Positions 3,038-18,502 of a stretch of DNA of 20,000 nt are shown here, piece by piece. The stretch comes from an uncultured virus (IMG/VR IMGVR_UViG_3300028030_000352). Taxonomy: Duplodnaviria > Heunggongvirae > Uroviricota > Caudoviricetes. How positions within the stretch are numbered: the stretch's first letter is position 1; each line of letters starts with the position of its first letter. Below the pieces are notes generated by a model that had not been told where the DNA came from, searched no databases, and saw nothing but the letters and a program-made list of their open reading frames with translations. The DNA is taken from IMG/VR virus record IMGVR_UViG_3300028030_000352. One strand, 5' to 3'. The position numbers and the translations under genes are program-made.

Positions 3038-3664
3038 TCATTTTGTTATTTGTATCATTTTATCTATCCGTATGAAGTATTGTTTATTTTCCTTTAAAAG
3101 TTCATTACTTTCAATAATCTTATCCAATATATCTACGGTATCGATTGGTGTATCATCTATTTTGTGCCAAATATTGTGAATACTATCAGACATTAATTCA
3201 AGTAACTTTTTATCTGATTTTATTCTTTCTATTATAGATATTATATCATAGTATTTATACAGTTCACTAAATATTTTAATGAACTGTTCATTGTTATATT
3301 CACTTATTAGTATTTTACTGTCATCAAGCCACAACTCATTGTTTATCGTATCAATGAATGATCGCTGTGGATCGTCCACATATCTAACGATTGACCCGAT
3401 AACAAATTTTTCTAGTACAACTTCTGAGTCATGTTTATCCACACATAACTTTAATGAAATAGTTATTTTTCCATTTCTTTTGTAATATATCGTTCCATAG
3501 TGTAATTCTTTATCACACTCTATTACGGAATAATACGTTGGTCTTATACCTACTTCTAACGTGTTATTATTTAATTCTACTTTAGTTATTACTATGTCAA
3601 ATTCAGTTCTTTTGTGCCCTATATTCCACTCGGTGTCATTTGTAACTATGAGTTTATCATCCAT
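3038..3664 (-). CDS. Hypothetical protein, local family A (paralog of 6981..7577)
   Basis: 208 aa. Aligns by eye with 6981..7577 (HYGTIYYKRNGKI/DYGYLLFSIDGTV; IKSDKKLL/VKNNDKLL; ILDKIIESNELLK/IIDTILNDNNLVK). Ends IDKMIQITK. Confidence 0.75.
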   Translation of the reverse strand: MDDKLIVTNDTEWNIGHKRTEFDIVITKVELNNNTLEVGIRPTYYSVIECDKELHYGTIYYKRNGKITISLKLCVDKHDSEVVLEKFVIGSIVRYVDDPQRSFIDTINNELWLDDSKILISEYNNEQFIKIFSELYKYYDIISIIERIKSDKKLLELMSDSIHNIWHKIDDTPIDTVDILDKIIESNELLKENKQYFIRIDKMIQITK

Positions 3665-3667
3665 ATT

Positions 3668-4837
3668 TCATCTATTGATCTTCCTCATTTTCATGTAACT
3701 ATCGATATTATTCAGTCCAATGTTATCAGGTATTTGTACACCTATTATATTTTTCATAACTGTACCTATAAGTTTACGATTTACATAATTTTTTATGAAT
3801 TGCGAGAAATATGTAAATGATTCTGCTCCATTAAATATGTCCCCTATGCTATTCACTTTTGACACGTCCCATGATGATAAATCTTGATTGAACGCTTTTG
3901 CTCCCTTAAACATGCTATTTATATTGGTGACGTTTGATACATTCCAATCTCCAATGGGCTGATTGAACGCGCTCGTTTCACTAAACATGCTACTCATGTC
4001 GATGACGTTTGACACATCCCATTGGCTGATATCTTGATTGAATGCGGTAGCCCAATAAAACATCCAATCCATGTTTTTTACACTTGACACATTCCAGTTA
4101 CTGATATCCTGGTTGAACGCTTTTGCTCCATAAAACATGTAACTCATGTTTGTGACGTTTGACACGTCCCAACTTCCGATTGGCTGATCGAATGCTGTGG
4201 CCCAATAAAACATATATTCCATGTTTTTTACATTTGACACGTCCCAAGATCCTATGTCTTGGTTAAAAGTATCCGCTTCATTAAACATAAAAGACGTATT
4301 TCTTACGTTTGACACGTTCCAGTTACCAATATCTTGGTTGAACGATTTTGCTCTATGAAACATGTAACGCATATTTTTTACTTTTGATACGTCCCAATCA
4401 CCAATGGGCTGATTGAATGCGGTAGCCCCATAAAACATATCTTGCATACTTTTTACTTTTGACACGTCCCATCTAGAAATGTCTTGATTGAACGATTCCG
4501 CCTGACTAAACATTCCAATTATGTTAATAACATTACTTATGTTCCAAGATCCAATGTCTTGGTTGAACGCTTTTGCTCCACTAAACATAGATCGCATGTT
4601 TTTTACTTTTGACACATTCCACGATCCGATAGGTTGATTGAACGATTTCGCAAATTTAAATATGTTATCCATGTTAATAACATTACTTGTATTCCATCTA
4701 GAAATGTCTTGATTGAACGCCACGTTACCTTCAAATAAATGGGACATGTCTGTGATGCCTATCGTGTCAACCTGGGTGACATCATCGCCATTCGCTATCA
4801 TTTTTTCAAGTTGTTTTCTTGTTACTTTTCTACTCAT
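3668..4837 (-). CDS. DUF285 (PARCEL)/BspA-like repeat protein, ~12 repeats
   Basis: 25-aa repeats of the form FNQ[DP]IxxW[DN]VSxVxxMxxMFxxA. No signal peptide. Ends YMKMRKINR. Confidence 0.92.
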
Positions 4838-5559
4838 TGATTTTATTCATTTTTAAATAACTATCCACACTATCCAATGGAACGTCCCTCACTTTTTTGT
4901 ACATTTCATTTCCTAGTAAGTCTTTTATGACTAATTTTATACCAACTTTAGTTTTTTTAATAAACTCATAAACATTATGGACACCACAATTTTTAAACAT
5001 GTAACTCATATTAACGGATGGATTTAGGCTCCAGTTTGATAAATCCTTGTCAAACGTTGTTGCTCCATCAAACATTGAACTAAGGGTCATAACATTTTTC
5101 ACATCCCATGACGAAATGTCTTGATTGAACGTTTTTGCATTTTTAAACATACAACACATATTTGTTACATGACTCACGTTCCATTTAGATAAATCCTGAT
5201 TGAACGTTATTGCCCCATAAAACATTTCCATCATATTAGTAACGTTGGACATGTCCCAATTAGAGATATCTCCATTGAATGACTTTGCCATCCTAAACAT
5301 GGCATTCATATATTTAACGTTAGATACGTTCCAACATGATAAATCTTGATTGAACGATTCCGCAAGATTAAACATATAGCACATGTCGGTAACGTTCGAC
5401 ACGTTCCATCCTGATATGTCCTGATTGAATGTTTTATTTCCTTCAAATAGATGAGACATGTCGCGAATTCTTGATGTGTCAACCTGAGTGACATCCTCGC
5501 CATTCGCTATCATTTTTTCAAGTTGTTTTCTTGTTACTTTTCTACTCATTGATTTTATT
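4764..5559. repeat. 84-bp direct repeat pair (4764-4847 and 5476-5559) spanning DUF285 gene starts and the upstream gene ends
   Basis: 82/84 identical by manual comparison. Includes the overlapping stop/start junction AAAATCAATGAGTAG. Confidence 0.9.
4830..5549 (-). CDS. DUF285/BspA-like repeat protein, ~6 repeats
   Basis: Same 25-aa repeats. N-terminus nearly identical to 3668..4837. Ends YLKMNKINE. Confidence 0.92.
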
Positions 5560-6294
5560 TATCTTATGGTATCTTATTAGTTGTGTCATCATGGTGTCAG
5601 ATATTTTTCCATTAAGTTGTTTTATAGCCATATTTTCAAAGCTTTGATCTTTAGAAAGTCTTTTGATGTCGTATAGGATCGTATCCGGAATGCATCTTTG
5701 ATTCAGATATTCTTTAACTTTATTCCTATAATGTCTTTTCATGAATGAGTATGAAAACTCTTTAATGAACAGTGAGATATCATTTATTGTTTTGTTTAGT
5801 TCATACTTATTGTTTTTAAATTCATAATATATTATTACCGTTATTTCATTAAATTTTGTTTGTTCTATCAATACCTGATATATTTTGGTATTTTCTTCTA
5901 TGTCATGTTTTATCATAGATATCGTATCTATATCAATAAAATCAAGGAATTGTCCTTTTACGTGATTATCTCTAGTTATGTATTGTAATGACCCATAAAG
6001 ATGTTTTATATAATCATCATCATTGATCATGTTATCATATACTGAATCCGGTATATGCACAGTGCACTTAAGTTTATTTATCTTTTCTTTTAGTGATATA
6101 GTGTGAACAATAGCTTCAATCAGTTTACTTTTGTCTAGACTATCTAGAGATAGACCTAAAGTTTTTGTTAGTGTTATTACTTCATTATTTCTGTTTAGGT
6201 ACATAAACCTAAACTTTGTTCTAAATGTTTGAGTGCTAGTTATTTCAATGTGCGTTATATTAAAATGAACTGGTTTCATAAAATTGTTTAGCAA
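5542..6294 (-). CDS. Hypothetical protein, local family B (paralog of 15057..15773); true start possibly ATG ~6279
   Basis: Shares KSKLIEAI/KSSLEKAI, VHIPDSVYDNMI/VHIPDKLYEKLI and IPDTILYDI/VPDDLIYGI with 15057..15773. Ends YHKINKINE. Confidence 0.75.
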   Translation of the reverse strand: MLNNFMKPVHFNITHIEITSTQTFRTKFRFMYLNRNNEVITLTKTLGLSLDSLDKSKLIEAIVHTISLKEKINKLKCTVHIPDSVYDNMINDDDYIKHLYGSLQYITRDNHVKGQFLDFIDIDTISMIKHDIEENTKIYQVLIEQTKFNEITVIIYYEFKNNKYELNKTINDISLFIKEFSYSFMKRHYRNKVKEYLNQRCIPDTILYDIKRLSKDQSFENMAIKQLNGKISDTMMTQLIRYHKINKINE

Positions 6295-6976
6295 GTTCGT
6301 TGAATTTACTTATTTTATGTCCATTTAATTTGACCCATAGTTCAAGGCCGAAATAATGACGTATTGCTTCGTGTGGTTTCCTAAATTTTTTGACGAATCT
6401 AGCTATGTCAAAAGATTTTGTTCTGTATAGCATCATACTTGTTTTTTCAACCTTATCTAGATCAAAGTATCGAACGTCATGATTGAATTTGAATGCATGA
6501 CTAAACATAAGAGACATGTCTTTTACCTTACTTGTGTCCCAATATGTTACATCATGACTAAATGATCTAGCGTTATCAAACATTCTTCTCATGCTAGTAA
6601 CGTTTGATACGTCCCACTCTGGCATGTCTTGATCAAATGCTTCAGCGTGTAAAAACATCCGACTCATATCCGTGACATTTGACGTGTTCCAACCGGAGAT
6701 ATCTTGATTGAACTTTTCACAAAATGCAAACATACCTGACATGTTTTTAACTTTGCTAGTGTCCCATTTAGATAAATCTTGATTGAATTCATACGCATAA
6801 ACAAACATGTTACTCATATTAGTAACGTTGGACACGTCCCAACGAGAGATGTCTTGATTGAACTTATTCTTACCACAAAACAGCTCGCTCATATCAGTGA
6901 TGCCGCTCGTGTCAACCTGAGTGACATCTTCATCGTTCGCGATCATATTGATTAATTGCTGTCGTGTTACTTTCAT
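6260..6976 (-). CDS. DUF285/BspA-like repeat protein, ~6 repeats
   Basis: 25-aa repeats and the conserved cap [29 protein letters not shown]. The C-terminus is diverged. Confidence 0.9.
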   Translation of the reverse strand: MKVTRQQLINMIANDEDVTQVDTSGITDMSELFCGKNKFNQDISRWDVSNVTNMSNMFVYAYEFNQDLSKWDTSKVKNMSGMFAFCEKFNQDISGWNTSNVTDMSRMFLHAEAFDQDMPEWDVSNVTSMRRMFDNARSFSHDVTYWDTSKVKDMSLMFSHAFKFNHDVRYFDLDKVEKTSMMLYRTKSFDIARFVKKFRKPHEAIRHYFGLELWVKLNGHKISKFNELAKQFYETSSF

Positions 6977-6980
6977 TTTG

Positions 6981-7577
6981 TCATACCGGTAACGTTGTGG
7001 TCTTTACCGCATCTAAGAATTTATTTCCGAATTTCTTGACAAGATTATTATCATTCAATATTGTATCAATTATCTTTTTAACATAATCACTTCTATCAAT
7101 TTCAATCTCATTACCGATTTCAATTATTTCTCTTTCTAATGACTTTAATAATTTGTCGTTATTTTTTACTGTCCCGATCGCTTTAACAACGTCATTGTTT
7201 TCATATAGTTTGTTTAATTCTTTCAGTAGTTCTTTCTTAGATTGTTCGTTAAATACAAACTTCGTTTTTGACTTATTGTATAAACTAGTAACCATTTGTT
7301 CTGCTGATTTAATTGCCTCATCAACGCTATTGGCAAACAGTTCAATTGTATACCTCTTATCTATTGTCTCCACACAATCATCATCATCATCGTAGCATCT
7401 GATGTTTATCGTATAATAACTAAATTGTACCGTCCCATCTATGCTAAATAAAAGATATCCATAATCGGATATCCTACTATATGAGCATTCTTCTTCTTTT
7501 TTATAACTAATATTGGCTTTAATTTCTTTATTAGATGATGAAATGGTTGAAGTTACGATATTGTAAATTTTTAACAT
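6981..7577 (-). CDS. Hypothetical protein, local family A (paralog of 3038..3664)
   Basis: 198-aa ORF with visible similarity to 3038..3664. Confidence 0.75.
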   Translation of the reverse strand: MLKIYNIVTSTISSSNKEIKANISYKKEEECSYSRISDYGYLLFSIDGTVQFSYYTINIRCYDDDDDCVETIDKRYTIELFANSVDEAIKSAEQMVTSLYNKSKTKFVFNEQSKKELLKELNKLYENNDVVKAIGTVKNNDKLLKSLEREIIEIGNEIEIDRSDYVKKIIDTILNDNNLVKKFGNKFLDAVKTTTLPV

Positions 7578-7589
7578 TGTATTACTTTC

Positions 7590-8458
7590 TTATTTACTTA
7601 TTTTTAGCATTTTTAGATATCCGTCAATCTTCTCAGGATTAATATTTTTAGTTTTTTCATACATATCATTCCCTAACATTTCCATTATTGTCAAATCAAT
7701 GTCACCATCTAGCTTTTTCGCTAATTTATGAATGTAACACATTCCGGAGTTTTCAAACATGTCTAAAATATTCATTATGTTAGATAAGCCCCAACTTGAG
7801 ACATCATTGTTGAATGAAATTGCCCTACTGAACATTTTTTCATTGTTACAACATTATATGTGTCCCATTTAGACAAATCTTGATTGAACGCTTCCGCATT
7901 GTTAAACATATAACTCATATTAGTTACACATGAAGTGTCCCAATCTTCAATGGGCTGATTGAACATTTTTGCCCCGTCAAACATATGACTCATATTTTCT
8001 ACCATAGATACGTCCCAATCACTAATGGGCTGATTGAACGTTCTTGCCCCGCTAAACATGTAACCCATATCTTTCACTCTGAATGTGTTCCACCCTGAAA
8101 TGTCTCCATTAAATGATTTTGTATTACCAAACATATAACTCATATTTTCCACGTTTGACACATCCCATTTGGACAAATCTTGATTGAATGACTCAGCACA
8201 ACAAAACATGCTACTCATATCTTCCACGTTTGAAACATTCCACTTGGAAATATCTTGATTGAACATTATACTTCCTTCAAACATGTGCTTCATACTTTCA
8301 ACGTTCGATGTATCCCAATTTGAAATATCCTGATTGAACGTTGTATTATTATAAAACAAGATTGACATGTCACGAATTTCGCTTGTGTCTACAAACCGGA
8401 CGTCCTGACCTCTGTCTATCATCCGGATTAATTCATCTCTTGTTACTTTTTTATCCAT
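7590..8458 (-). pseudogene. DUF285/BspA-like repeat gene (~8 repeats) split by a 1-nt frameshift in an A6 run at 7835-7840
   Basis: ORF 7775..8458 loses repeat register after ...VVTMKK. ORF 7590..7835 resumes it (MFSRAISFNNDVSSW) and carries the family C-terminal domain ending YLKMLKISK. One extra A gives a single ~289-aa ORF. Confidence 0.85.
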
Positions 8459-8907
8459 GAAAAAATTGACTCAAATAGATAACTATACGCTATTGTATTT
8501 TTTAGATCTTTTGCAATAGATTCGTTTAAATCACTGATTTTATCAAAGTCAAAAACATTAAATGAAGTTCCACCTGTAGTTGGTATTGGTATTGCAGGAA
8601 TACTTGGCAGGTTATTTATTAAAAATTCATATTGATGTTTTACTAATTGTTCTCCCCCTATAAATATACCAATTACTACATCATCATTCAATTGTGACTC
8701 AATATCATTAACAATTTCTACTCTGTTCATTACGCCAATTTTTTCCGACAAATTAGTCACAAACTGTGTTATCGATTCATTATTATTGATGAATACTATG
8801 TCAAACTCAGTTTCTTTTACTGAGTAGATCAAATAACGAATCGACTCCCTTATGAGAATTTTATTACTGTTGTTTATTCCGGATGATACTAATATTTTCT
8901 TACTCAT
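8443..8907 (-). CDS. Stand-alone SLOG superfamily protein (LD_cluster3-like), degenerate
   Basis: Recognised from memory of the family pattern: ILVSSGI...IRESIRYLI...IGIFIGG...PAIPIPTTGGTS...AYSYLF resembles SLOG cluster 3 (AVFIGG, PVASTGGAA). Not confirmed by an HMM search. Confidence 0.65.
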   Translation of the reverse strand: MSKKILVSSGINNSNKILIRESIRYLIYSVKETEFDIVFINNNESITQFVTNLSEKIGVMNRVEIVNDIESQLNDDVVIGIFIGGEQLVKHQYEFLINNLPSIPAIPIPTTGGTSFNVFDFDKISDLNESIAKDLKNTIAYSYLFESIFSWIKK

Positions 8908-9511
8908 TGATCTTTTTTAAATCGCTCATTTTTATGTATTTATATAGGTCGTCGTTATCTAATGATGCCAACGCCGATTTTATGACACTTTTTCTAAATG
9001 ATTTGTCATTCAAAATGTTTTTTACAGTCTTTTCCCATGACATTAAACTTTCGTATGTCCACGCAGGTACTATGTCCATGTCAAATTCGAAAAATTGTTC
9101 TGTGTAAGCGATAAGTTCATCCATTGAATTATTACAAATTGCCGGAGATGACAACTTGATCGTTATTTCTTCTCCGTTATATCTGGCTGTTATGTTTACC
9201 ATCGTGTCAACTATTTCATAATCTAAAAATCTAGCGTCAACTTTCATGTATTTTTGTTTTTTTGACTCATCTAAATGATAATCAGCATACTCAATGACTT
9301 CCAGTGCTTTATCATTAACTACGCCATTAAATAGATCAATGATTTGATCCATTCTACTATCAAATCCCAACTCAGATCTCAAATGATACTCCATTTGAGG
9401 TCTATCATACTTTGATGAAAGTTTAATTATCTTTCCATCAACATCTATGCTAGCGTTTACTGTCCATGCCCATCCGATAGCTTGATCTATCGATACATCT
9501 GTTATTTTCAT
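8900..9511 (-). CDS. Hypothetical protein with an internally duplicated beta-rich module
   Basis: 203 aa. VNASIDVDGKIIKLSS resembles VNITARYNGEEITIKLSS. Ends MSDLKKINE. Confidence 0.72.
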   Translation of the reverse strand: MKITDVSIDQAIGWAWTVNASIDVDGKIIKLSSKYDRPQMEYHLRSELGFDSRMDQIIDLFNGVVNDKALEVIEYADYHLDESKKQKYMKVDARFLDYEIVDTMVNITARYNGEEITIKLSSPAICNNSMDELIAYTEQFFEFDMDIVPAWTYESLMSWEKTVKNILNDKSFRKSVIKSALASLDNDDLYKYIKMSDLKKINE

Positions 9512-9520
9512 TGATTTACC

Positions 9521-9856
9521 CTACGCATTTATCTGTTTTAGCATTATGAGTCTTATCCTATCTTTCAATCTATCTGATACATTTATCTGTCCGTTTTTTA
9601 TCTGTTTTGATAAACTTAGCATCATTGATGCTATGTTAGATTTTGTATTCAGCAGGTCATAGTGTATTTCGTTATCTATATATTTATCATTCAGAATAAT
9701 GTCACATTCTACATCACCAATTTCAGGAACTCTTAGTGAAATGTCTACTGACATTTTGTATATTGTGACTGTTCCGTTAACATATGACACATCTAGGGTA
9801 TCTCCATTCCATAGTGTGTATGATTCGTCTTCTGATTTTGTGAAGTTTACTATCAT
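9521..9856 (-). CDS. Hypothetical protein
   Basis: 111-aa ORF, ends LIMLKQINA. Confidence 0.68.
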   Translation of the reverse strand: MIVNFTKSEDESYTLWNGDTLDVSYVNGTVTIYKMSVDISLRVPEIGDVECDIILNDKYIDNEIHYDLLNTKSNIASMMLSLSKQIKNGQINVSDRLKDRIRLIMLKQINA

Positions 9857-9886
9857 GTTTGTATTTAGTAAGTATGCATATAGAAG

Positions 9887-9927
9887 GGATACTACGTGAC
9901 GTAGATTAAATACGTCACGTAGTATCC
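9887..9927. repeat. Perfect 17-bp inverted repeat with a 7-nt loop (hairpin, terminator or operator)
   Basis: GGATACTACGTGACGTA-gattaaa-TACGTCACGTAGTATCC, 14 nt downstream of the 9942..10211 stop. Confidence 0.9.
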
Positions 9928-9941
9928 TCCTATCGTTAGAT

Positions 9942-10211
9942 CTACTTGGACAGTGACTCTAGCAGTCTTTCAACCGCTACTTCGATGATCTGTGTCCTCG
10001 GTGGAGGAACGGACAGGCCATCCCCAGATTCAGACAGAACAGTTTTTACCTGTTCAACAAGTTTCAGAGTTTGGAGTGAAACCAAAACCGGCTTCGATTG
10101 CCGGGTCTTTTTCGTTGTCTTTTTTGCGGTGGTCTTTTTCGTTGCGGTGGTCTTTTTCGTTGCGGTGGTCTTTTTCGTTGCGGTGGTCTTTTTCGTAGTT
10201 GTAGTTGTCAT
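9942..10211 (-). CDS. Small basic DNA-binding protein: histone-H1-like K/T/A tail plus putative ribbon-helix-helix domain
   Basis: N-terminal TKKTTA repeats, then SKPVLVS (strand), LQTLKLVEQVKTVL (helix) and RTQIIEVAVERLLESL (helix), the CopG/Arc-type layout. Confidence 0.65.
   Translation of the reverse strand: MTTTTTKKTTATKKTTATKKTTATKKTTAKKTTKKTRQSKPVLVSLQTLKLVEQVKTVLSESGDGLSVPPPRTQIIEVAVERLLESLSK
10124..10195. repeat. 18-bp tandem repeat TTGCGGTGGTCTTTTTCG x4 (encodes TKKTTA)
   Basis: Exact copies at 10124, 10142, 10160 and 10178. Confidence 0.95.
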
Positions 10212-10237
10212 TGTTGTTATCCTGTTTTTTGTTTGTG

Positions 10238-10912
10238 TTATTTTGTTATATCTTTCAGAGCTAGATATCTACCGATGCTTTCAACCGGTTCTACAGAGTA
10301 TAGAAGTTCATAGGCTTGTGCCGATGTTGGCCTGACAGTGGCATTTTTTATTCTATCAATTAATATATCATCTATGAATATTGATGCTAAATGTTTTATT
10401 ACGATACCATTTACTACTGTCATCAAGACTGAATCTATTATTGCCTGCCATATCTTTATGTGATAATAGTCCATATCATCTATTTTTATTGTACGTGAAA
10501 ATCTTTCATCTTTATAGGTGGCATCATACTTTACTACAGCGTAATCATTTTTTACTACGAAGTATACTTCATTGAATTTTACATCATGAAGTTTCATTAT
10601 TATTGATATGTAGTATTTACTATTGATGAACGCGTTGTTATCGATATATGAGTCATCTATTTCTTTTGAAATTATGTCCAAGTATGATTTGTTTGATCTT
10701 GCATGTACTATTACGTCATGGTCTAAAGTTACATCTTCTCTAAATTTTTCTTCTATTGTTCGTTTAAAGTTTACAGTAAACGCTACTGTATCAATGTTTA
10801 TGTCCGCCAGAATGACCGATAATTCATAAACATTTCCATCACGTTCATATTTAAACCAGACTTTATATTTATTTCCAATACGTTTGAACTGTGTTAACTC
10901 AAGTATTTTCAT
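10238..10912 (-). CDS. Hypothetical protein with an apparent duplicated beta-rich module
   Basis: 224 aa, ends YLALKDITK. Confidence 0.72.
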   Translation of the reverse strand: MKILELTQFKRIGNKYKVWFKYERDGNVYELSVILADINIDTVAFTVNFKRTIEEKFREDVTLDHDVIVHARSNKSYLDIISKEIDDSYIDNNAFINSKYYISIIMKLHDVKFNEVYFVVKNDYAVVKYDATYKDERFSRTIKIDDMDYYHIKIWQAIIDSVLMTVVNGIVIKHLASIFIDDILIDRIKNATVRPTSAQAYELLYSVEPVESIGRYLALKDITK

Positions 10913-10927
10913 CTCAATTTTTATGTG

Positions 10928-11047
10928 TTGCTGGTAGACACTTAGGTGCCATTCATTTCTTTATTTGCGGTTTTGACTTTGCCATCTTTTGTGGCGTTTC
11001 TTTGACTATAAAAAATCTTCGAATGACACCTAAGTGTCTACCAGCAA
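10928..11047. repeat. 27-bp inverted repeat (1 mismatch) enclosing a 66-bp spacer; fills the intergenic region
   Basis: TTGCTGGTAGACACTTAGGTGCCATTC (10928-10954) and GAATGACACCTAAGTGTCTACCAGCAA (11021-11047). Confidence 0.92.
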
Positions 11048-11054
11048 TATTTTA

Positions 11055-11522
11055 TTACAACAGAATTCTTTTTAATTGTATGGCTTTTATTATCTTCCTA
11101 CTTTCTGCTACGGCCATTCCTTTATTCACCCCGTAGCTCCTCATTAGGGCGAACGATTCATTCTTCACAAAACGATCTATAAACTTTTGATCAATCTGAT
11201 CATGGATCTGTTTTGCTACTGATTTTATAATCGATGTTTTATTCTTCATCATATAATACATAACGATCTCTGTTAGAGAAACCGCCACATGTTTTGGAAA
11301 ACTTGTCCTCAAATGTTTTGAGATTACCTTATTCACTAAATTGTATACTACATCATTTGGATGTGTGCCACATACTTCAATGACAGAGTACACATTACCA
11401 TATCTTACATATGTTTTGATACAGTATGTTTTATTCTTTTTGAAAAACCTTTTTAACTCTACGTCAATAGGTATCTCAAATAGTGGAGCTATCGTGTTAA
11501 CAATATCTTGTTCTTGAACCAT
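11055..11522 (-). CDS. Hypothetical protein (possibly the C-terminal half of a frameshifted gene)
   Basis: 155 aa, ends AIQLKRILL. Overlaps the upstream ORF by 34 bp. Confidence 0.65.
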   Translation of the reverse strand: MVQEQDIVNTIAPLFEIPIDVELKRFFKKNKTYCIKTYVRYGNVYSVIEVCGTHPNDVVYNLVNKVISKHLRTSFPKHVAVSLTEIVMYYMMKNKTSIIKSVAKQIHDQIDQKFIDRFVKNESFALMRSYGVNKGMAVAESRKIIKAIQLKRILL

Positions 11523-11815
11523 GTTATCGACATCTCCCTTCTTTTAGACGTAAAGTTTATAATTGATTCCCTTATATGTTCAATGATCTTATCTGAGTTG
11601 TTATCTAAAAATTCATTGAACAATTTTTGATCAAGTTTGACATTATAGACTTTGAGCTTTTCTTGGATCTTATGATACTCAAAGTTAAACGTGAACTCAG
11701 CCACATATGTACTATCAACATTATGTACATGAACGTATACATGATAATCACCGTGTCCATCGGTTATCGCTAAACTTACAACTTCATTGTTTTGAACGTT
11801 CGCGCTTATGATCAT
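11489..11815 (-). CDS. Hypothetical protein (possibly the N-terminal half of a frameshifted gene)
   Basis: 108 aa, with an ATGA overlap with the upstream gene's stop. Confidence 0.62.
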   Translation of the reverse strand: MIISANVQNNEVVSLAITDGHGDYHVYVHVHNVDSTYVAEFTFNFEYHKIQEKLKVYNVKLDQKLFNEFLDNNSDKIIEHIRESIINFTSKRREMSITWFKNKILLTR

Positions 11816-12633
11816 TGTTTTATCATGTTTATCTTGATAATATCCATCAGTTTATCGTCCGGTAAAGCTTTAGCCATTTTACTTATGTCCTTTAGCTCCA
11901 TCATAATTAACTTTCTCATATCTGAGTTTATCGGCTTTATCGCCTTCACAAATTTTTTGAATAGTTTGTTCATATTTATACAGTATATAGCATCCTTGTT
12001 AATCTTAAAATAAGATACGATAATATTAATCACTCCAGTATAAACTTGTAGCATGTCATAATCATTTATGTTATGTCTATATACCACTAGCGATGGTAGT
12101 GATAACCTGTCATTATAAGTTGATGATGCGTATCTATCTGTTTTTCCATCCATTGTGATGGAAAATTCATACATTATTGATATTCGATATGATGCACTGT
12201 CACGTGCTTTATTTACTACATATATATTAACTGAATGAAATTGTATCGAGTCAAGTTCATTTATAGTTGTTTTCACACTATGTGGAGTTTCTAACTTTAT
12301 TGAGTCAGTATAATTTATTAGGTCATTCAATATTTTGTCATTTATATCATTGTTGATGACGTTTAGTTGTTCATCAGCTATTGTTTGCGCGATCATCTCT
12401 TTAAACTGTTTTTCATTTGAGATGACAATATTTATGTACTCGTTGATAGCGTTTGATATCGGATCAACGATCACCAATGAGTATGATGAGTCCATCATCT
12501 TGATCATTCCTCTTGATGTATAACCTGTATTGGTTTCAATCTCTACATCAATATTCACGCTAAAGTGATTGAAACCTATCGCTTCTACATTTAAAATCTT
12601 TACTATTAAACTAGTTTTACGCTGCACACACAA
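11812..12633 (-). CDS. Hypothetical protein, local family C (paralog of 14194..14958); likely start GTG at 12627
   Basis: NEKQFKEMIA/NEKQFKSMVA, YEFSITMDGKT/YSFSITINGKT and KLFKKFVKAI/RLFTEFVDSI are shared with 14194..14958. SD-like AGGGG at 12640-12636. Ends IIKINMIKQ. Confidence 0.78.
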   Translation of the reverse strand: MCVQRKTSLIVKILNVEAIGFNHFSVNIDVEIETNTGYTSRGMIKMMDSSYSLVIVDPISNAINEYINIVISNEKQFKEMIAQTIADEQLNVINNDINDKILNDLINYTDSIKLETPHSVKTTINELDSIQFHSVNIYVVNKARDSASYRISIMYEFSITMDGKTDRYASSTYNDRLSLPSLVVYRHNINDYDMLQVYTGVINIIVSYFKINKDAIYCINMNKLFKKFVKAIKPINSDMRKLIMMELKDISKMAKALPDDKLMDIIKINMIKQ

Positions 12634-12648
12634 ATCCCCTTTAAATTG

Positions 12649-12668
12649 AAAAAAGACTGCATAAGTCT
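12649..12668 (-). terminator. Weak possible intrinsic terminator
   Basis: Minus strand reads AGACT-tatgc-AGTCT followed by a T run, directly at the 12667..13125 stop. The stem is only 5 bp. Confidence 0.3.
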
Positions 12669-13125
12669 AAGAGTTTATCAACGATAACTTATATAGTCTT
12701 TTCATTTTATTTATATCACACGGCCCTGGTTTTATGAGTTTAATCGGATCATGGTCTTCATATGTTATCACATATCTGTACATCAATAACTGAGATGACC
12801 CTACTGTTATCATAAGACCGTCTCTATCAAAAATTATAAGTGGATAATCTGTCGATAATTGAACAAAATCAACAGGTTGTATATACATGTCATACATATC
12901 TCTAACGTTTACCATGTCATATCTGAATATTAGCTTACCTTCATTACCAACACGTTTTCCGTCCCATGGGATATAATCATATGGTATTCCATTTTTTAGG
13001 ACTAGATACCTGGTCCTTGAGTATATGTCATTACCGGTTGTTGTATAATCATCATATATTATAGCTAGCATTACAACAGTTAGTACTATCACAATGGCTA
13101 TCATTAAAAAGAATAGTTCATTCAT
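12667..13125 (-). CDS. Hypothetical single-pass membrane protein
   Basis: N-terminal hydrophobic segment LFFLMIAIVIVLTVVMLAII. Ends LYKLSLINS. Confidence 0.72.
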   Translation of the reverse strand: MNELFFLMIAIVIVLTVVMLAIIYDDYTTTGNDIYSRTRYLVLKNGIPYDYIPWDGKRVGNEGKLIFRYDMVNVRDMYDMYIQPVDFVQLSTDYPLIIFDRDGLMITVGSSQLLMYRYVITYEDHDPIKLIKPGPCDINKMKRLYKLSLINS

Positions 13126-13128
13126 TAT

Positions 13129-13650
13129 TCATTCCAATAGTACGCTAACCTCGTCCACAATCTTTTGTATTATGATATCCTCCACAATTCTGGCTGCCGA
13201 TTGTTTATCAACCATCCCCTTCATTGACTTACTGATTGTTAATGGCAATAAACTAACCCCATGGTATATCATTGCATCATATATTGTATATCTGATACTA
13301 TCAATACTTACGTTATACTTTTTAATGTCATCCCATATATATTTTGGTAACAGTTTTTTAAATTTGCATCCATAATGACGTTCAAAGTATGCGTCCACCA
13401 ATTTTGTTAGTATTATTGAATAACTTGACGTCTTCTGTTCATCAAGAAAGTTACTGGCGTCATACACTAAAACTGTGTAACTTCCCATATTTGTATCCAC
13501 TATTGCGTCTGCGTTAAATAGTGAATAATTATCATCCACTCTTTGTAATTTAATCGACTTTATCTTAACATTTTTCAAAAAATGAATGGCTTCTAGTGTT
13601 AGATTATGCTCTAATGCCTGCTTTGTTATTTTATTTATGTTTTTTCCCAT
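13129..13650 (-). CDS. Hypothetical protein
   Basis: 173-aa ORF, tightly packed with neighbours. Confidence 0.7.
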   Translation of the reverse strand: MGKNINKITKQALEHNLTLEAIHFLKNVKIKSIKLQRVDDNYSLFNADAIVDTNMGSYTVLVYDASNFLDEQKTSSYSIILTKLVDAYFERHYGCKFKKLLPKYIWDDIKKYNVSIDSIRYTIYDAMIYHGVSLLPLTISKSMKGMVDKQSAARIVEDIIIQKIVDEVSVLLE

Positions 13651-13651
13651 G

Positions 13652-14197
13652 TCACCCTAGTATTGTGTTCATCTTTACTAACCTATTTGCGGTTTCAATA
13701 ATTCTATTGTAATTTATATCATTTTTACCTATGGCATATCCGAATCTATTGAATATGCCATATGCTACTGATTTTACTAGGATGTCATAATTATCTACAC
13801 GTACTTCACTATTGACTGCACTATCGATGTTATCTTTTAATGCATTATAAAGCATGTTATAAACTGACTGTTTTACTGTTTTAGCATTTCTTTCTTTGCT
13901 TAGTTTTCCGAAATATCCATTCCAATTTCTTATCATCTTTAATACTATCTCATCGATTTCATCAATATTTGATGATGTTACATCATGCTTTATGACTCCA
14001 TTGTAATACTTTAAGCTTTTTGGAAGTGGAGAATAAAACGATAAACGACCCTCGGATTGAAACACCCTAGTCTTTCCCATCACGTTATAAAGAGTAAACC
14101 TAGTATTTTCCTTGATTTCATTGAATAATGGGGAAAGTTCATTTTTAAATATGTCAGATTTCAGTATTAGTTTGTAAACCCTTTTATTTTTTATCAT
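13652..14197 (-). CDS. Hypothetical protein
   Basis: 181 aa, 4-bp overlap with the upstream gene. Ends LVKMNTILG. Confidence 0.7.
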   Translation of the reverse strand: MIKNKRVYKLILKSDIFKNELSPLFNEIKENTRFTLYNVMGKTRVFQSEGRLSFYSPLPKSLKYYNGVIKHDVTSSNIDEIDEIVLKMIRNWNGYFGKLSKERNAKTVKQSVYNMLYNALKDNIDSAVNSEVRVDNYDILVKSVAYGIFNRFGYAIGKNDINYNRIIETANRLVKMNTILG

Positions 14198-14958
14198 TTA
14201 TTGATCCTATTTAGTTTAATTGCCGACGCTATTGTATGTACTGGTAACACAGATACTATGAGGTTATCATATGGATTGTCTTTACCGATCCAATTTAGCG
14301 CCATTTCAATTAGTCTATCACTATCCATGACTATGCTGTCAACAAATTCAGTAAACAGTCTTTTCGTGTCCATCATGTACATCATTGTATTACTAATATT
14401 TCCCATTGCGAGGATAACTGTCAGTATTTCATAAAATGCATCAATAATTATATCACTGTCTGTTTGCTCTTTTTTATCAAATAGACTTATTTGTTTATCA
14501 CCAAATTCTACTCCTAGTTTTTTTGTTTTACCATTGATGGTGATTGAAAAACTATAATCCACGATACTTCTATTGTTGTTTACTCTAATAAGATAAACAT
14601 AGTCCCACTTAATTGAATCAATAATCTTTTGGGATTTATTTACATCATCAATAATTTGTTTTTTATCACTTATGCTATCATTAACAATAATGTCCGCATA
14701 CTTGTCTATAATCATTTTTGCATCAGCAAATTTGGCTACCATACTCTTAAATTGTTTCTCATTATCGATGAAAACATTATAATTTGACTTTTCACCAGTA
14801 ACACTATCAATGATTTGCAATTGAGTCATGTATGTACTGACTATTATGGTAGCATTAAGTTTTTTACCTGTCACTGCTTTTACTAATGACTTGATTCTTA
14901 TTTCGTGATCGAAAAACTCTACGTCTTTTACACTCAATACCTCAATTTTTGTTACCAT
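14194..14958 (-). CDS. Hypothetical protein, local family C (paralog of 11812..12633)
   Basis: 254 aa, with motifs shared with 11812..12633. Ends AIKLNRINK. Confidence 0.78.
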   Translation of the reverse strand: MVTKIEVLSVKDVEFFDHEIRIKSLVKAVTGKKLNATIIVSTYMTQLQIIDSVTGEKSNYNVFIDNEKQFKSMVAKFADAKMIIDKYADIIVNDSISDKKQIIDDVNKSQKIIDSIKWDYVYLIRVNNNRSIVDYSFSITINGKTKKLGVEFGDKQISLFDKKEQTDSDIIIDAFYEILTVILAMGNISNTMMYMMDTKRLFTEFVDSIVMDSDRLIEMALNWIGKDNPYDNLIVSVLPVHTIASAIKLNRINK

Positions 14959-15056
14959 AGCTTCTGCCTTCCTTTATATCTTCCTGGCTTTTCATGTATT
15001 CAATGGCTTGACATAGCCTAACATATCATAAAGTGGCAAGGGGATACTGTCCTGTG

Positions 15057-15773
15057 TTACGACGATATTTTTTTCATTGAATAGAGTCTTTTGTATGTTT
15101 CCCTTATATTTTTTGGGAATACTCTATTAAAATATTCGTCATTTGTGCTATCACGAAGTGCCTGTTCTATTCCATAAATTAGATCGTCCGGAACTATCAG
15201 GTAAAACAATTTATTATTTCTAAAGTCACCGTATGATTTTAGGGTGTCATATGTATCTCTATCAACATGTTTTAGTATGGTTGATAAAATCAGCGTTACC
15301 GGTGAAACGCTATATTGAAGTATTCCATGTCTGGACCAACCTGTGATCCTTTTGATGGTGTCACCGTTATACGTGAATTTTATACTGAATTTTACTAAAT
15401 TTCCATATCTAAACGCTATGATTTCTTCTATTTTTACTTTTTTACTTAATTTTCGTCTTATTTTAACATATTCATGAAACTCACTGGAATCTGTGAATTT
15501 GCGTATATTACCAAACACATATCCCGTCCAGTGCTCTGACATGATTAACTTTTCATACAGTTTATCGGGAATATGAACACTTTCAAAATAACCGCTATAT
15601 GACGATTCATTAAGATTTGTTAAAATTGCTTTTTCTAGACTTGACTTCTTCATACTTCCGGTAACGTCAATGTTAACCGACATATCATGATTTTCACCGT
15701 TGTATATAAAACTAATTTCTATTTTTAAATATGATGATGATACGTTATACGCTTTTATGTCAGTGACTATCAT
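15057..15773 (-). CDS. Hypothetical protein, local family B (paralog of 5542..6294)
   Basis: 238 aa. Internal duplication KIEISFIYNGE/KFSIKFTYNGD. Ends LYSMKKISS. Confidence 0.75.
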   Translation of the reverse strand: MIVTDIKAYNVSSSYLKIEISFIYNGENHDMSVNIDVTGSMKKSSLEKAILTNLNESSYSGYFESVHIPDKLYEKLIMSEHWTGYVFGNIRKFTDSSEFHEYVKIRRKLSKKVKIEEIIAFRYGNLVKFSIKFTYNGDTIKRITGWSRHGILQYSVSPVTLILSTILKHVDRDTYDTLKSYGDFRNNKLFYLIVPDDLIYGIEQALRDSTNDEYFNRVFPKNIRETYKRLYSMKKISS

Positions 15774-16651
15774 GTTTGCACTCTTATCATTCTAAGAAAA
15801 TCATCGAGACCTCCCAGATTATGCTTCCTTATTGTCATGTTTATATCATACATTTCCCACTCAATGACGTCCTCTATTATTTCATCACGAGTGTATTTAC
15901 CGGAAAGTTTGTTTATGAATCTAGAAAGTCTTGTCATACCGGATTCATAGAACATGTTACGAATATGCTCTAGTTTATCCACTCTCCAGTTACATAGATC
16001 CTGGTTAAACGCCATTGCTCTGGCAAACATGCTTTCCATTCTTTCTACGTTAGACACGTCCCAGTTCCCAATCGGCTGATTGAAACTTAGTGCCTCACAA
16101 AACATAGCATTCATATTATCAACGTTTGATGTGTCCCAATTCCCAATTGGCTGATTGAATGCTGCAGCACTATCAAACATGTAACTCATGTCAGTTACTT
16201 TACTCGTATTCCAATTCCCAATTGGTTGATTGAAACTGAACGCGTTATTAAACATGTGGTTCATGTCAACTGTTTTACTTGTGTCCCATCTACTGATGTC
16301 TTGATTGAATGATGAAGCATTTTCAAACATCCCATCCATATACTCAACATTCGAAGTATTCCATCTTCCGATCGGTTGATTAAACATTCTTGCATCGTTA
16401 AACATATGACTCATGTGCACAACGTTCGACGTGTCCCATCGAGAGATATCCTGATTGAAACTGGACGCCCCGCCGAACATGTCATTCATGTTAGTCACAT
16501 TAGATGTGTCCCACCTACTGATGTCCTGATTAAAATCAGGTTTTTCGGCAAATAAACAGGACATGTCAGTGACAGCGCTTGTATCAATGAATCTAAGATC
16601 ATATTCATACATGATCAATTCTATCAGTTGTCGTCTGTCAACTTTTATCAT
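15770..16651 (-). CDS. DUF285/BspA-like repeat protein, ~8 repeats
   Basis: 25-aa repeats ([21 protein letters not shown]) and the same N-terminal cap. Ends FLRMIRVQT. Confidence 0.92.
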   Translation of the reverse strand: MIKVDRRQLIELIMYEYDLRFIDTSAVTDMSCLFAEKPDFNQDISRWDTSNVTNMNDMFGGASSFNQDISRWDTSNVVHMSHMFNDARMFNQPIGRWNTSNVEYMDGMFENASSFNQDISRWDTSKTVDMNHMFNNAFSFNQPIGNWNTSKVTDMSYMFDSAAAFNQPIGNWDTSNVDNMNAMFCEALSFNQPIGNWDVSNVERMESMFARAMAFNQDLCNWRVDKLEHIRNMFYESGMTRLSRFINKLSGKYTRDEIIEDVIEWEMYDINMTIRKHNLGGLDDFLRMIRVQT

Positions 16652-17380: not shown

Positions 17381-18502
17381 TTATGAAAGTGCTTCTATTA
17401 GTTTGTTAATAATAGAGTCGAAACTCTTTTTGTCTACTCCATCAATGTCTACCATGCGAATGAATCCGTTTGGACTAACGCTTGCCCTGATAGATCCGAT
17501 CGCCATCTCTGGTGGGACATTCTGCATGAATTGTACAACCCTGTTTAACTTTTTGATATCATCTCTACTTGGACTATAGTTAGACCCCTCAATCGCCGAC
17601 ACAGATCTGTCCATTGCGCTCATTATAAAGACAAATCTTTCATCCATTGAAAGCCTGTCATACTTAGACTGTACTTTTTTGCCATTGAGAAGGTCATCAA
17701 CGAGTCCGTCAATTTTTACGTAGTATGTAAGCCATACTTGAAACTTGATAGCAGCCTCTGTGCCAACATAGCCCTCGATGGCCATGATTTGGTCTTTCAC
17801 CGTCATGTTATTATTTTCCATCAGGCCAAGCACTCCTGATGCCATCGTCCATGACCTTGGTGACGGTTTTGTCAGTGTTTGTTCATCTTCTGACTCGTGG
17901 TCCACTAGGATTTGACCTGGGTTTTTCATGAGATAACCGGTGATCAGTGGGTGCACCTTATTGTTTGATGCCCATGACACCCATCCATCAATGCTAGGTT
18001 GAAGAGTGTAAATCAGTGACCTGTTCGCTACTGGACGCGAAATTTCATTGGAGAACGCTCCCTCGTCCGGCATGTTTGCTGTTGCGATAATCACCTTCGT
18101 TCCAGTTTTTCTTCCCATGATCGACTGGTCTTGGAAGAACTCAAGCAGTGGGGCTTGAAGTTCTCTTGCTGACTTGTCAAGCTCGTCCAGTAAGACGACA
18201 CTAGGTTCATTTTCTTTAGTGAATAGGTCTGGTGGAGCCCACCGAGTTACTCCATCCACGACTTGTGGGATTCCTAGGAAGTCTGTCGCTTCCATTACCG
18301 ACAAGTTGATGTAAACGAGTTTCATTCCGGACTCTTTTACTAGCTGCTCTGCGATTTTCGTCTTCCCTACTCCCGCTGGTCCGAAGACGATCATGTTCCG
18401 GTAGATTCTTTCGTTTTCTGCGTTTTTTAGCAGAAATCTCACCATTCTTTCGTACTGGATGGTGTTTATCGTGCGGACGTTTTTGATTTGGTAGTTTTTC
18501 AT
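17381..18502 (-). CDS. MoxR-type/AAA_5 AAA+ ATPase
   Basis: Walker A GPAGVGKT, Walker B VVLLDE, sensor I ATAN, Arg finger PVANR and a PSPRSW motif. Adjacent to a VWA gene. Confidence 0.92.
   Translation of the reverse strand: MKNYQIKNVRTINTIQYERMVRFLLKNAENERIYRNMIVFGPAGVGKTKIAEQLVKESGMKLVYINLSVMEATDFLGIPQVVDGVTRWAPPDLFTKENEPSVVLLDELDKSARELQAPLLEFFQDQSIMGRKTGTKVIIATANMPDEGAFSNEISRPVANRSLIYTLQPSIDGWVSWASNNKVHPLITGYLMKNPGQILVDHESEDEQTLTKPSPRSWTMASGVLGLMENNNMTVKDQIMAIEGYVGTEAAIKFQVWLTYYVKIDGLVDDLLNGKKVQSKYDRLSMDERFVFIMSAMDRSVSAIEGSNYSPSRDDIKKLNRVVQFMQNVPPEMAIGSIRASVSPNGFIRMVDIDGVDKKSFDSIINKLIEALS

Follow-up and report, generated by a model that had tools for sequence, protein, structure and literature searches.

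A 20,000-nucleotide (nt) stretch of DNA from an uncultured virus (IMG/VR record IMGVR_UViG_3300028030_000352, Caudoviricetes), referred to as the window and shown as one strand, contains between positions 3038 and 16651 a block of 22 neighbouring open reading frames (ORFs), 14 of which end in the same kind of short basic peptide. This C-terminal tag is held in exact register with the protein end and, as far as sequence comparison can tell, is joined to some ten bodies that are otherwise unrelated. We regard it as probable, with a fair margin of doubt, that a single partner, itself probably encoded by the phage, reads the ten-residue end as a short linear label for addressing or docking. The 14 carriers, all on the minus strand, are listed below with the codons of their tags and their scores against a leave-one-family-out matrix, together with one paralog that is not a carrier; residues are counted back from the last one (-1).

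3038..3664, minus: g3038, 208 residues, orphan; tag R-I-D-K-M-I-Q-I-T-K, codons 3041-3070; score 8.95
3668..4837, minus: g3668, 389 residues, DUF285 protein (PF03382, 5e-142) with a helical tail of ~48 residues; end YMKMRKINR, tag codons 3671-3700; score 4.33
4830..5549, minus: g4830, 239 residues, DUF285 protein; end YLKMNKINE, tag codons 4833-4862; score 11.48
5542..6294, minus: g5542, ~245-250 residues, orphan; end YHKINKINE, tag codons 5545-5574; score 16.53
7590..8458, minus: g7590, split DUF285 gene (ORFs 7775-8458 and 7590-7835); tag G-Y-L-K-M-L-K-I-S-K, codons 7593-7622; score 6.60
8900..9511, minus: g8900, 203 residues, orphan; tag K-M-S-D-L-K-K-I-N-E, codons 8903-8932; score 6.85
9521..9856, minus: g9521, 111 residues, orphan; tag R-L-I-M-L-K-Q-I-N-A, codons 9524-9553; score 12.40
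10238..10912, minus: g10238, 224 residues, orphan; tag R-Y-L-A-L-K-D-I-T-K, codons 10241-10270, Pro at -16; score 9.09
11055..11522, minus: g11055, 155 residues, orphan; tag K-A-I-Q-L-K-R-I-L-L, codons 11058-11087, 142 nt to the next gene start; score 9.04
11812..12633, minus: g11812, the weakest carrier, 273 residues, paralog of g14194; tag D-I-I-K-I-N-M-I-K-Q, codons 11815-11844; score -5.0
12667..13125, minus: g12667, 152 residues; tag R-L-Y-K-L-S-L-I-N-S, codons 12670-12699; score 7.71
13652..14197, minus: g13652, 181 residues, orphan; tag R-L-V-K-M-N-T-I-L-G, codons 13655-13684; score 3.00
14194..14958, minus: g14194, 254 residues, orphan; tag S-A-I-K-L-N-R-I-N-K, codons 14197-14226, Pro at -16; score 16.12
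15057..15773, minus: g15057, 238 residues, orphan; tag R-L-Y-S-M-K-K-I-S-S, codons 15060-15089; score 14.70
15770..16651, minus: g15770, 293 residues, DUF285 paralog, not a carrier; end F-L-R-M-I-R-V-Q-T; score -9.27

Translation of the minus-strand ORFs returns exactly the 14 nine-residue ends that a preliminary description, drawn from the letters of the window only, had listed. Ile, which makes up 9.1% of the background, occupies -3 in 15 of the 22 ORFs of the block (binomial 2e-11), and Met, Leu or Ile occupies -6 in 16 of the 22, as that description had noticed for the carriers; its count of Lys at -7 is likewise exact (9 of the 14 carriers, p=0.0017; 10 of the 22 block ORFs). It had also proposed to compare a position matrix of the tag with other protein ends. 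A matrix of the last 12 residues, from which the family of the scored protein is always left out, ranks 13 of the 14 carriers no lower than the 99.84th percentile among 5,784 internal windows, while none of 15 non-carriers exceeds the 97.3rd percentile and a single one of 100 plus-strand decoy ORFs scores above 3. The motif is bound to the protein end. At two columns that were not used in choosing the carriers, Arg is found at -10 in 7 of 14 (p<0.0004) and Asn, Ser or Thr is preferred at -2 (p=0.0017), whereas upstream of -10 there is only a weak preference for Pro at -16 (3 of 14; p=0.03). Since columns -10, -7 and -2 are significant and almost nothing stands out further upstream, the unit is a ten-residue end, [R/K/S]-hydrophobic-hydrophobic-K-[M/L/I]-x-[K/R]-I-[N/S/T]-x-COOH, with its signal at -10 to -2. 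The end reported for g11812 is correct but fits poorly in the register first given to it, and reaches 6.2 when shifted by 3 residues; g8900 has a second possible register, 3 residues upstream. The near matches reported earlier, FLRMIRVQT (g15770) and ESIFSWIKK (8443), are accurate as sequences, but both score -9.3 and fall outside the matrix. The 50-residue tail of g15770 is homologous to the tagged DUF285 tails, its extreme end having drifted from the motif.

BLAST assembles the proteins into the DUF285 set, the pairs g11812-g14194 (2e-11) and g3038-g6981 (1e-4, g6981 being untagged), and a weak pair, g15057-g5542 (2e-3). Once the last 20 residues are removed, iterated hidden Markov model (HMM) searches join only g14194 with g11812 and g3038 with g6981. 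By these searches about ten sequence-unrelated bodies carry the tag, and the carriers are not all full-length homologs, in agreement with their first portrayal as otherwise different proteins. The DUF285 paralogs do have a tail of ~50 residues in common; because an HMM of these 50-residue tails recovers no further carrier above decoys, a shared tail domain of 35-50 residues was dropped, and only the short end is common to all carriers. Nor does the tag look like a feature of the DUF285 family: the motif ends 0 of 120 of the best DUF285 homologs outside the window, which cover at most 85% of g4830, a search with the tail region of g4830 alone returned nothing, and the window paralog g6260 lacks the tag. 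Pfam analysis of the last 60 residues of the 14 carriers and g15770 (E<=10) reports scattered sub-threshold hits, such as YqbF HeH on g5542 (0.033), and neither Pfam nor PHROGs has a family for the tag or, the DUF285 genes apart, for its carriers. A search with g14194 finds only itself, and a g14194+g11812 profile returns nothing in IMG/VR and, among 1.84 billion representatives, those two proteins plus one other, P0123. The latter is a 1,891-residue protein with DUF11-like repeats by eye, matched over nine weak stretches (summed E 3e-11, profile positions 138-190). It is a lead at most: the matched part, the second β-meander, may point to a module of Ig-like or CARDB-like type, or the match may be a repeat artefact. 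ESM Atlas searches with the tail and with g14194 gave no usable lead.

The information in the tag resides at codon positions 1-2 of residue -3 and position 2 of residue -6. The codons themselves vary (ATG, ATA, TTA, CTA and CTG at -6; ATA in 8, ATC in 5 and ATT in 1 at -3), and the sequence after the stop is not conserved across carriers. For these reasons the constraint is on the peptide and not on the DNA, with the exception of one duplicated junction. There, the last 15 nt of g5542 equal the last 15 nt of g4830, and the identity runs for at least 30 nt downstream, as far as it was compared. From their sequences, the junctions g4830/g3668 and g5542/g4830 are clearly a DNA-level duplicate, in which the 5' end of the DUF285 gene was copied along with the five final codons (N-K-I-N-E) of the gene upstream of it.

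As to its shape, the tag had been described as an amphipathic basic helix, and half of this description stands. The net charge over the last 12 residues is +1 to +4 in 13 of the 14 carriers, so that the tag is indeed basic. However, the helical hydrophobic moment of the tags is only 0.03-0.37, against 0.5-0.59 for the terminal helices of untagged neighbours, and the moment of the mean profile peaks at 120 degrees (0.51, against 0.09 at 100 degrees), which corresponds to a period of 3.0 residues. Because of this low moment and 120-degree period, an amphipathic helix is unsupported and a lipid-binding one unlikely. AlphaFold2 predicts g4830 with a mean pLDDT of 89.6, and its tail as four short helices (residues 191-234), the last of which begins right after a Pro, at a low pLDDT of 59-69. 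For g14194 the mean is 59.6, falling below 50 at the C-terminus, and the model comprises two β-meanders plus helices.

Tags of the same kind occur in distant relatives of the window. Five such relatives (G001 to G005) were found in IMG/VR through the MoxR-type AAA+ ATPase encoded just upstream of the tagged block, on contigs of 131-436 kb (G001, 436 kb and complete; G002, 427 kb; G003, 131 kb). Around the ATPase homologs, arrays of small ORFs have common ends of their own in 4 of the 5 contigs. Over whole contigs, V-M-[DE]-x-stop is found 89 times in G001 and 45 times in G002 (control, 2 and 1, respectively), and I-I-x-x-I-I-x-stop 36 times in G003 and 8 times in G005 (control, 2 and 3). Met occupies -3 in 18% of the 628 G001 ORFs and 27% of the 635 G002 ORFs, and Ile does so in 36% of the 210 G003 ORFs; in G004 a tag of this type, ...[DE]-E-Y-x-T-x-E-V-V-[ED]-[SAG], is present but weaker. 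The tagged proteins in these phages are only small ones, the tag being present in 0 of 112 G001 ORFs and 2 of 91 G002 ORFs of at least 300 residues. After removal of the last 16 residues, BLAST yields 102 clusters for 104 proteins in G001, 162 for 165 in G002 and 17 for 49 in G003. A Pfam family (E<=0.001) is missing in 94 of the 95 tagged G001 proteins scanned, and with transmembrane-like stretches in 0-5% of them the relatives' tagged proteins look soluble. The synonymous codons at the G001 tag positions match the usage of the genome.

The relatives' tags are acidic, for instance ...E-x-[IV]-[VI]-x-E-[VI]-M-[ED]-S or a form one residue shorter. Columns -14 to -4 of the G003 matrix recognise 30% of the G001 tagged ends when these are trimmed by one residue, 2% when untrimmed, and 1% of the G005 ends; by this comparison the acidic tags of G001-G004 are mutually related. 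The G001 and G003 matrices place at most 3 of the 14 window carriers below 0.05, and the trimmed G002 matrix places 10 of 14 there, but also 3 of 8 non-carriers. Conversely, the window matrix retrieves 1.0-2.5% of the relatives' ORF ends, against 1% expected. Thirteen tagged G001 proteins have a homolog in G002, with Met at -3 kept in 10 and the tag missing in 3, and a G004 ortholog at 57% identity is without tag. Since some orthologs are devoid of it, the tag is modular. The first 110 kb of G001, beside the terminal repeat, contain 66 of its 98 strictly tagged genes; this region has few genes in common with G002 or G004 and includes MoxR, VWA, ParB-like, ligase, RtcB and NAMPT genes. The protease, portal and terminase genes are at 350-363 kb, among them a head maturation protease-like ORF (350839-352392; phrog_18299, 4e-8), and the replication genes at 160-190 and 370-390 kb.

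Two further observations concern G001. About a quarter of its tags have a Cys at -12 and 12 of 98 a Cys at -9 (e.g. C-E-E-P-E-C-V-V-x-x-V-M-E-S), a subset of carriers thus showing a Cys pair immediately before the tag. In addition, a tagged ORF of 214 residues (352391-353035) adjoins the protease-like gene on the opposite strand, near portal and terminase, and is one of the few tagged genes there.

If we assume a label and a reader, selection would act on the peptide itself, joined to about ten unrelated bodies that comprise DUF285 solenoids, orphans made of β-meanders and helices, and a putatively membrane-anchored protein. The carriers lie in a block of accessory genes that evolves fast, in a phage that is large and probably huge. 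Other end-reading systems are known to read the free carboxylate together with a nearby residue. Because the end register is exact, one binding pocket would likewise hold both the hydrophobic residue at -3 and the free carboxylate; and since the tag dialects differ between genomes, the reader would co-evolve with them and be phage-encoded. The earlier proposal of one terminal label and one common receptor thus retains its core, which fits the protein-level conservation, the end register, the unrelated bodies and the relatives' tags, and loses its amphipathic helix. With slightly less than even confidence, this can be widened to a lineage of huge phages running a proteome-scale C-terminal address code, in per-phage dialects, on tens to more than 100 unrelated, fast-evolving small effectors with one co-evolving reader, the window being an independent basic dialect carried by DUF285 binders and orphans. 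Such a reader might, for example, bring the marked proteins into the capsid so that they are injected with the DNA, or it might import or clear them as a group. In a distant relative of these phages, the window shows a system of their kind, possibly in a dialect of its own.

Several points weigh against a label with a single reader, or against its extension to the relatives. The carriers were chosen by eye on columns -3, -6 and -9 (the other columns were tested separately), and very old common ancestry of their bodies would still be compatible with the searches. One carrier, g12667, has an N-terminal hydrophobic stretch of ~21 residues and is probably membrane-anchored. The window tag and the relatives' tags are alike in kind, but homology between them is not demonstrable from their sequences; the link to the relatives rests on two genes, MoxR and VWA, at 33-40% identity, and these are all that the window has in common with G001. 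The preliminary description had suggested looking for the tag in related genomes: the basic tag itself was not found elsewhere, a degenerate-pattern scan of IMG/VR giving 67 single hits and no locus with more than one tagged ORF end, but the relatives bear end-registered tags of their own. The ORFs of these relatives are crude, uncurated greedy calls of at least 50 residues, covering in G002 the first 400 kb. G005 shows no positional signal in 579 ORFs, though it encodes MoxR and the peptidase-VWA protein, and the tag is missing in some orthologs, as described above. The tagged G001 genes lie far from the head and tail genes, which suits early or accessory genes and disfavours virion loading. 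Lastly, the presence/absence comparison of G001-G005 identified no reader.

The destination proposed for the marked proteins is loading into or onto a structure built by the phage, most likely the capsid, from which small host-takeover or anti-defence proteins would be delivered along with the DNA. Phage T4 delivers internal proteins with its DNA. Its capsid targeting sequence (CTS) is an N-terminal peptide carried by the internal proteins and Alt and removed by the prohead protease after L/I-x-E. The window tag resembles the CTS as a short terminal peptide common to different small phage proteins and addressing, as proposed, one phage-built structure. It differs in being C-terminal (it lies within the last 10 residues, and the N-termini of the carriers differ), basic and without known cleavage, and its link to the capsid is a proposal. 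An I-x-E-COOH end is present in 3 of the 14 carriers, and the V-M-E-S or I-I-E ends of the relatives merely resemble the hydrophobic-x-Glu pattern. The gp21-type protease family PF03420 had no match in the five relatives, but the control also matched nowhere.

The second precedent is the encapsulin cargo-loading peptide (CLP), a C-terminal peptide of ~10 residues found on unrelated cargo, which binds a pocket inside an HK97-fold shell and suffices for loading (PMC7355545). The window tag shares with it a length of about ten residues, the C-terminal position and the presence on unrelated proteins. In contrast, the two sequences are unrelated, encapsulin cargo is encoded beside the shell gene, of which there is none in this window, and encapsulins have few cargo types against 14 to more than 100 tagged proteins here. 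Virion loading is ranked first among the destinations since its clearest precedents, T4 CTS and encapsulin CLP, are cases of capsid or shell loading, and since delivery of takeover or anti-defence proteins with the DNA is a known strategy; even so, it is possible rather than likely. Within the same label reading, docking on an AAA+ or protease machine, as a degron or client tag, has a smaller chance, and gathering at a common hub or compartment a slim one.

Taken as an explanation in its own right, the degron or client tag would dock the carriers on an AAA+ unfoldase or protease for remodelling or timed clearance, the phage MoxR with the peptidase-VWA protein, a classical AAA ATPase, or the host ClpXP or FtsH being the machines proposed. 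It is unlikely, but it is the strongest of the rivals. The accessory, early-like position of the carriers would suit timed clearance. The MoxR gene and the tagged block share a strand, with the block starting ~730 nt downstream, and MoxR and peptidase-VWA genes are inside the tag-rich regions of G001, G002 and G003. Both SspB, whose ClpX-binding tail is a basic-hydrophobic, end-registered docking peptide, and MuA-like substrates dock on an AAA+ machine in this manner. For the latter, ClpX C-motif 2 is given as R/H-x-K/R-K-hydrophobic at the C-terminus (PMC3983244), which the tag resembles as an end-registered basic-hydrophobic peptide. Yet the register is different, K/R-Ile being at -4/-3 with two more residues following in 14 of 14 carriers, the window motif spans 10 residues with extra conserved positions, and the relatives' dialects are acidic. 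Iyer et al. 2021 describe MoxR and the peptidase-vWA protein as partners in a chaperone system, with a proposed role in assembly and with proteolytic processing (PMC7824862), a further point for such a machine. Against it, G005 is tagless despite its MoxR, peptidase-VWA and nearby classical AAA ATPase, per-phage dialects fit badly with a conserved host protease, an S41 C-terminal processing protease was found in 0 of the 5 relatives, and ClpP only in G003 and G005. On gene content, MoxR/VWA is the sole marker pair tying the window to the tag-bearing phages, and MoxR is a neighbour of the block and at most a candidate reader. A single complex prediction of MoxR, the VWA domain and a DUF285 tail, run without controls, scored 0.00 and weighs neither way.

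Two other candidate readers were set aside. The Sel1-repeat protein of the window combines a lipoprotein-type signal with paired cysteines, as is typical of exported Sel1 proteins. Primase, PD-(D/E)XK nuclease and classical AAA ATPase are the families found in G001-G004 but missed in G005, which has a similar AAA ATPase, so that this comparison does not discriminate.

Somewhat less probable than a degron is an end with no reader, left over from one ancestral gene, for instance as a structurally needed last helix, or acquired by repeated in-frame fusion onto a resident 3' end at cassette junctions. The g5542/g4830 junction is clearly a duplicate as DNA, there are paralog pairs among the carriers, and in the relatives the tag is gained or lost between orthologs. 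By eye, many orphan carriers begin with a similar β-hairpin pattern, and two β-meanders are predicted for g14194. However, beyond that one junction the tags have amino acids in common and not codons, and the bodies have diverged past HMM detection with -10 to -2 still kept, which requires purifying selection on the end. The same end is found on a DUF285 solenoid and on unrelated folds alike, and G001 and G002 each join one tag to more than 100 BLAST-unrelated bodies, with genome-typical synonymous codons.

Very improbable is a constraint on nucleic acid or translation, in the form of a promoter, an A-rich initiation region, a coupling signal, or a nascent peptide acting in the ribosome tunnel at termination. 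The window genes are packed tightly, overlapping by 4 to 34 nt, and a Shine-Dalgarno sequence is missing before most starts. In G001 the Ser at -1 is biased to TCA (43 observed, 13 expected), making an ATGA overlap with the next start, and TGA stops are enriched (71 of 98 tagged versus 269 of 530 untagged genes); an effect in the tunnel would by nature register to the end. Besides the location of the information at codon positions 1-2 and the variation within synonymous and conservative codon classes, the spacing of the genes argues against such a constraint. Between carrier stop and next start there is anything from an overlap of 8 nt to a gap of 142 nt, with gaps of 26-142 nt behind 5 of the 14 carriers, and the untagged g6981, g13129 and g16653 likewise abut the next gene. 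In G001, the next ORF on the same strand is more than 100 nt away for 35% of the tagged genes and Ser(-1) is written with both TCN and AGY, while dialects that differ among related phages fit badly with a conserved ribosome.

Weakest of all is a membrane-targeting amphipathic helix of the MinD and FtsA type, bringing the carriers to the inner membrane: the basic-hydrophobic tail at the extreme C-terminus and the AlphaFold2 terminal helix would agree with it, but a high moment with a period of ~3.6 is expected of such helices and the window tags show neither, a strict Ile(-3) and an exact end register would be superfluous for lipid binding, and the relatives' tags are acidic.

Two more known systems invite comparison with a label read by one partner. 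Poxvirus ankyrin/PRANC proteins are repeat paralogs with variable binding domains and a common C-terminal F-box-like module that docks on Skp1; the likeness lies in repeat proteins with one short C-terminal docking module, the difference in the host, eukaryotic there and bacterial here. The F-box and PRANC families PF00646, PF12937 and PF09372 had no match (E<=10) in the last 60 residues of the 14 carriers and g15770. The signal of Dot/Icm type IV secretion, carried by effectors of type IVB bacteria, is C-terminal with a hydrophobic residue at -3/-4. A hydrophobic -3 is present in the carriers, but the context is that of a phage (a PHROG ATPase at 2.7e-48, phage relatives of 131-436 kb), in which this comparison is unsupported; no secretion genes are in view within the window.

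Shared terminal address peptides are known on a handful of proteins, as in T4 internal proteins, encapsulin cargo and PTS1. In the full-text literature searched, no description of such tags in large phages was found, and the one paper on huge phages that speaks of a 'C-terminal motif' concerns ribosomal protein bS21. Terminal address peptides as such are a known kind, and the evidence suggests a protein-addressing label that has not been described; this tag and its scale in the relatives appear to be new. The scale is 14 of 22 neighbouring genes here and 18-36% of the called ORFs in the distant relatives, nearly all of them family-less orphans. Should there be one reader, it would open a shared way into the 'dark matter' of huge-phage genomes, telling where these proteins go and when, and probably which of them are delivered together. 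Phage-based tools would also gain a natural, portable tag by which proteins can be loaded or routed.

Every long ORF of the window is on the minus strand, and its guanine-cytosine (GC) content is ~32%. Pfam and PHROGs recognise the following genes in addition to five DUF285 repeat genes (3668, 4830, 6260, 7775/7590 and 15770), the remaining genes of 3038-16651 being orphans.

3-1145, minus: T5orf172 and ResIII helicase
1142-2344, minus: Sel1-repeat protein with a lipoprotein-type signal
8443, minus: SLOG-like protein
17381..18502, minus: MoxR-type AAA+ ATPase, just upstream of the tagged block (phrog_1297, 2.7e-48)
18530..19999, minus: VWA (DUF2201) protein with an intact D-x-S-x-S motif, continuing past the window edge

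No capsid, shell or head gene is among these recognised genes, and megablast of the window against phage records gave no match. The single database copy of g14194 is on a contig of 67,428 bp, which is neither in IMG/VR nor among the metagenome loci retrieved with the ATPase. One DNA sequencing run, labelled hydrothermal vent metagenome, contains the stretch and may be its source, and no RNA run containing it came up. The window most likely comes from the genome of a large or huge phage, as its nearest ATPase relatives (32-40% identity) are on phage contigs of 131-436 kb. A giant-virus origin, suggested by DUF285 expansions in Kratosvirus, was rejected in view of the phage ATPase and VWA families and of phage relatives that encode sigma factors; the host is bacterial.

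The split DUF285 gene (7590-8458) is interrupted by a one-base frame change in an A6 run (7835-7840). One extra A in this run restores ...V-T-M-K-K-M-F-S-R-A-I-S-F-N-N-D..., a regular DUF285 repeat, and the change could be an assembly error, a pseudogene or slippage. The Sel1 protein contains a triple PVINK repeat, has its cysteines in pairs in every repeat, and is probably exported, judging from its signal; a surface or periplasmic Sel1 protein encoded by a phage is unusual. The VWA protein contains a very long acidic, S/G/D/Q-rich low-complexity insert, with local GC up to 49%, where its relatives have a short acidic linker between an N-terminal HExxH peptidase-like domain and the VWA domain. 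In G005, three genes by MoxR/VWA (locus L001, 12413-14074) contain tandem repeats of ~23 residues (...LSE[DE]FI[RK]EFQDKVNW..IS...), and three adjacent paralogs (L001, 36-1753) end in ...W-[ND]-S-S-S-[AS]-[YFK]-C, a family-level motif. Lastly, an untagged small protein of the window (9942-10211, minus) begins with a basic repeat rich in T and K (TTKKTTA...), and its C-terminal part resembles, by eye, a ribbon-helix-helix. It is followed by a hairpin (9887-9927, minus) with a 17-bp stem and without a clear T run, which divides the tagged block in two.

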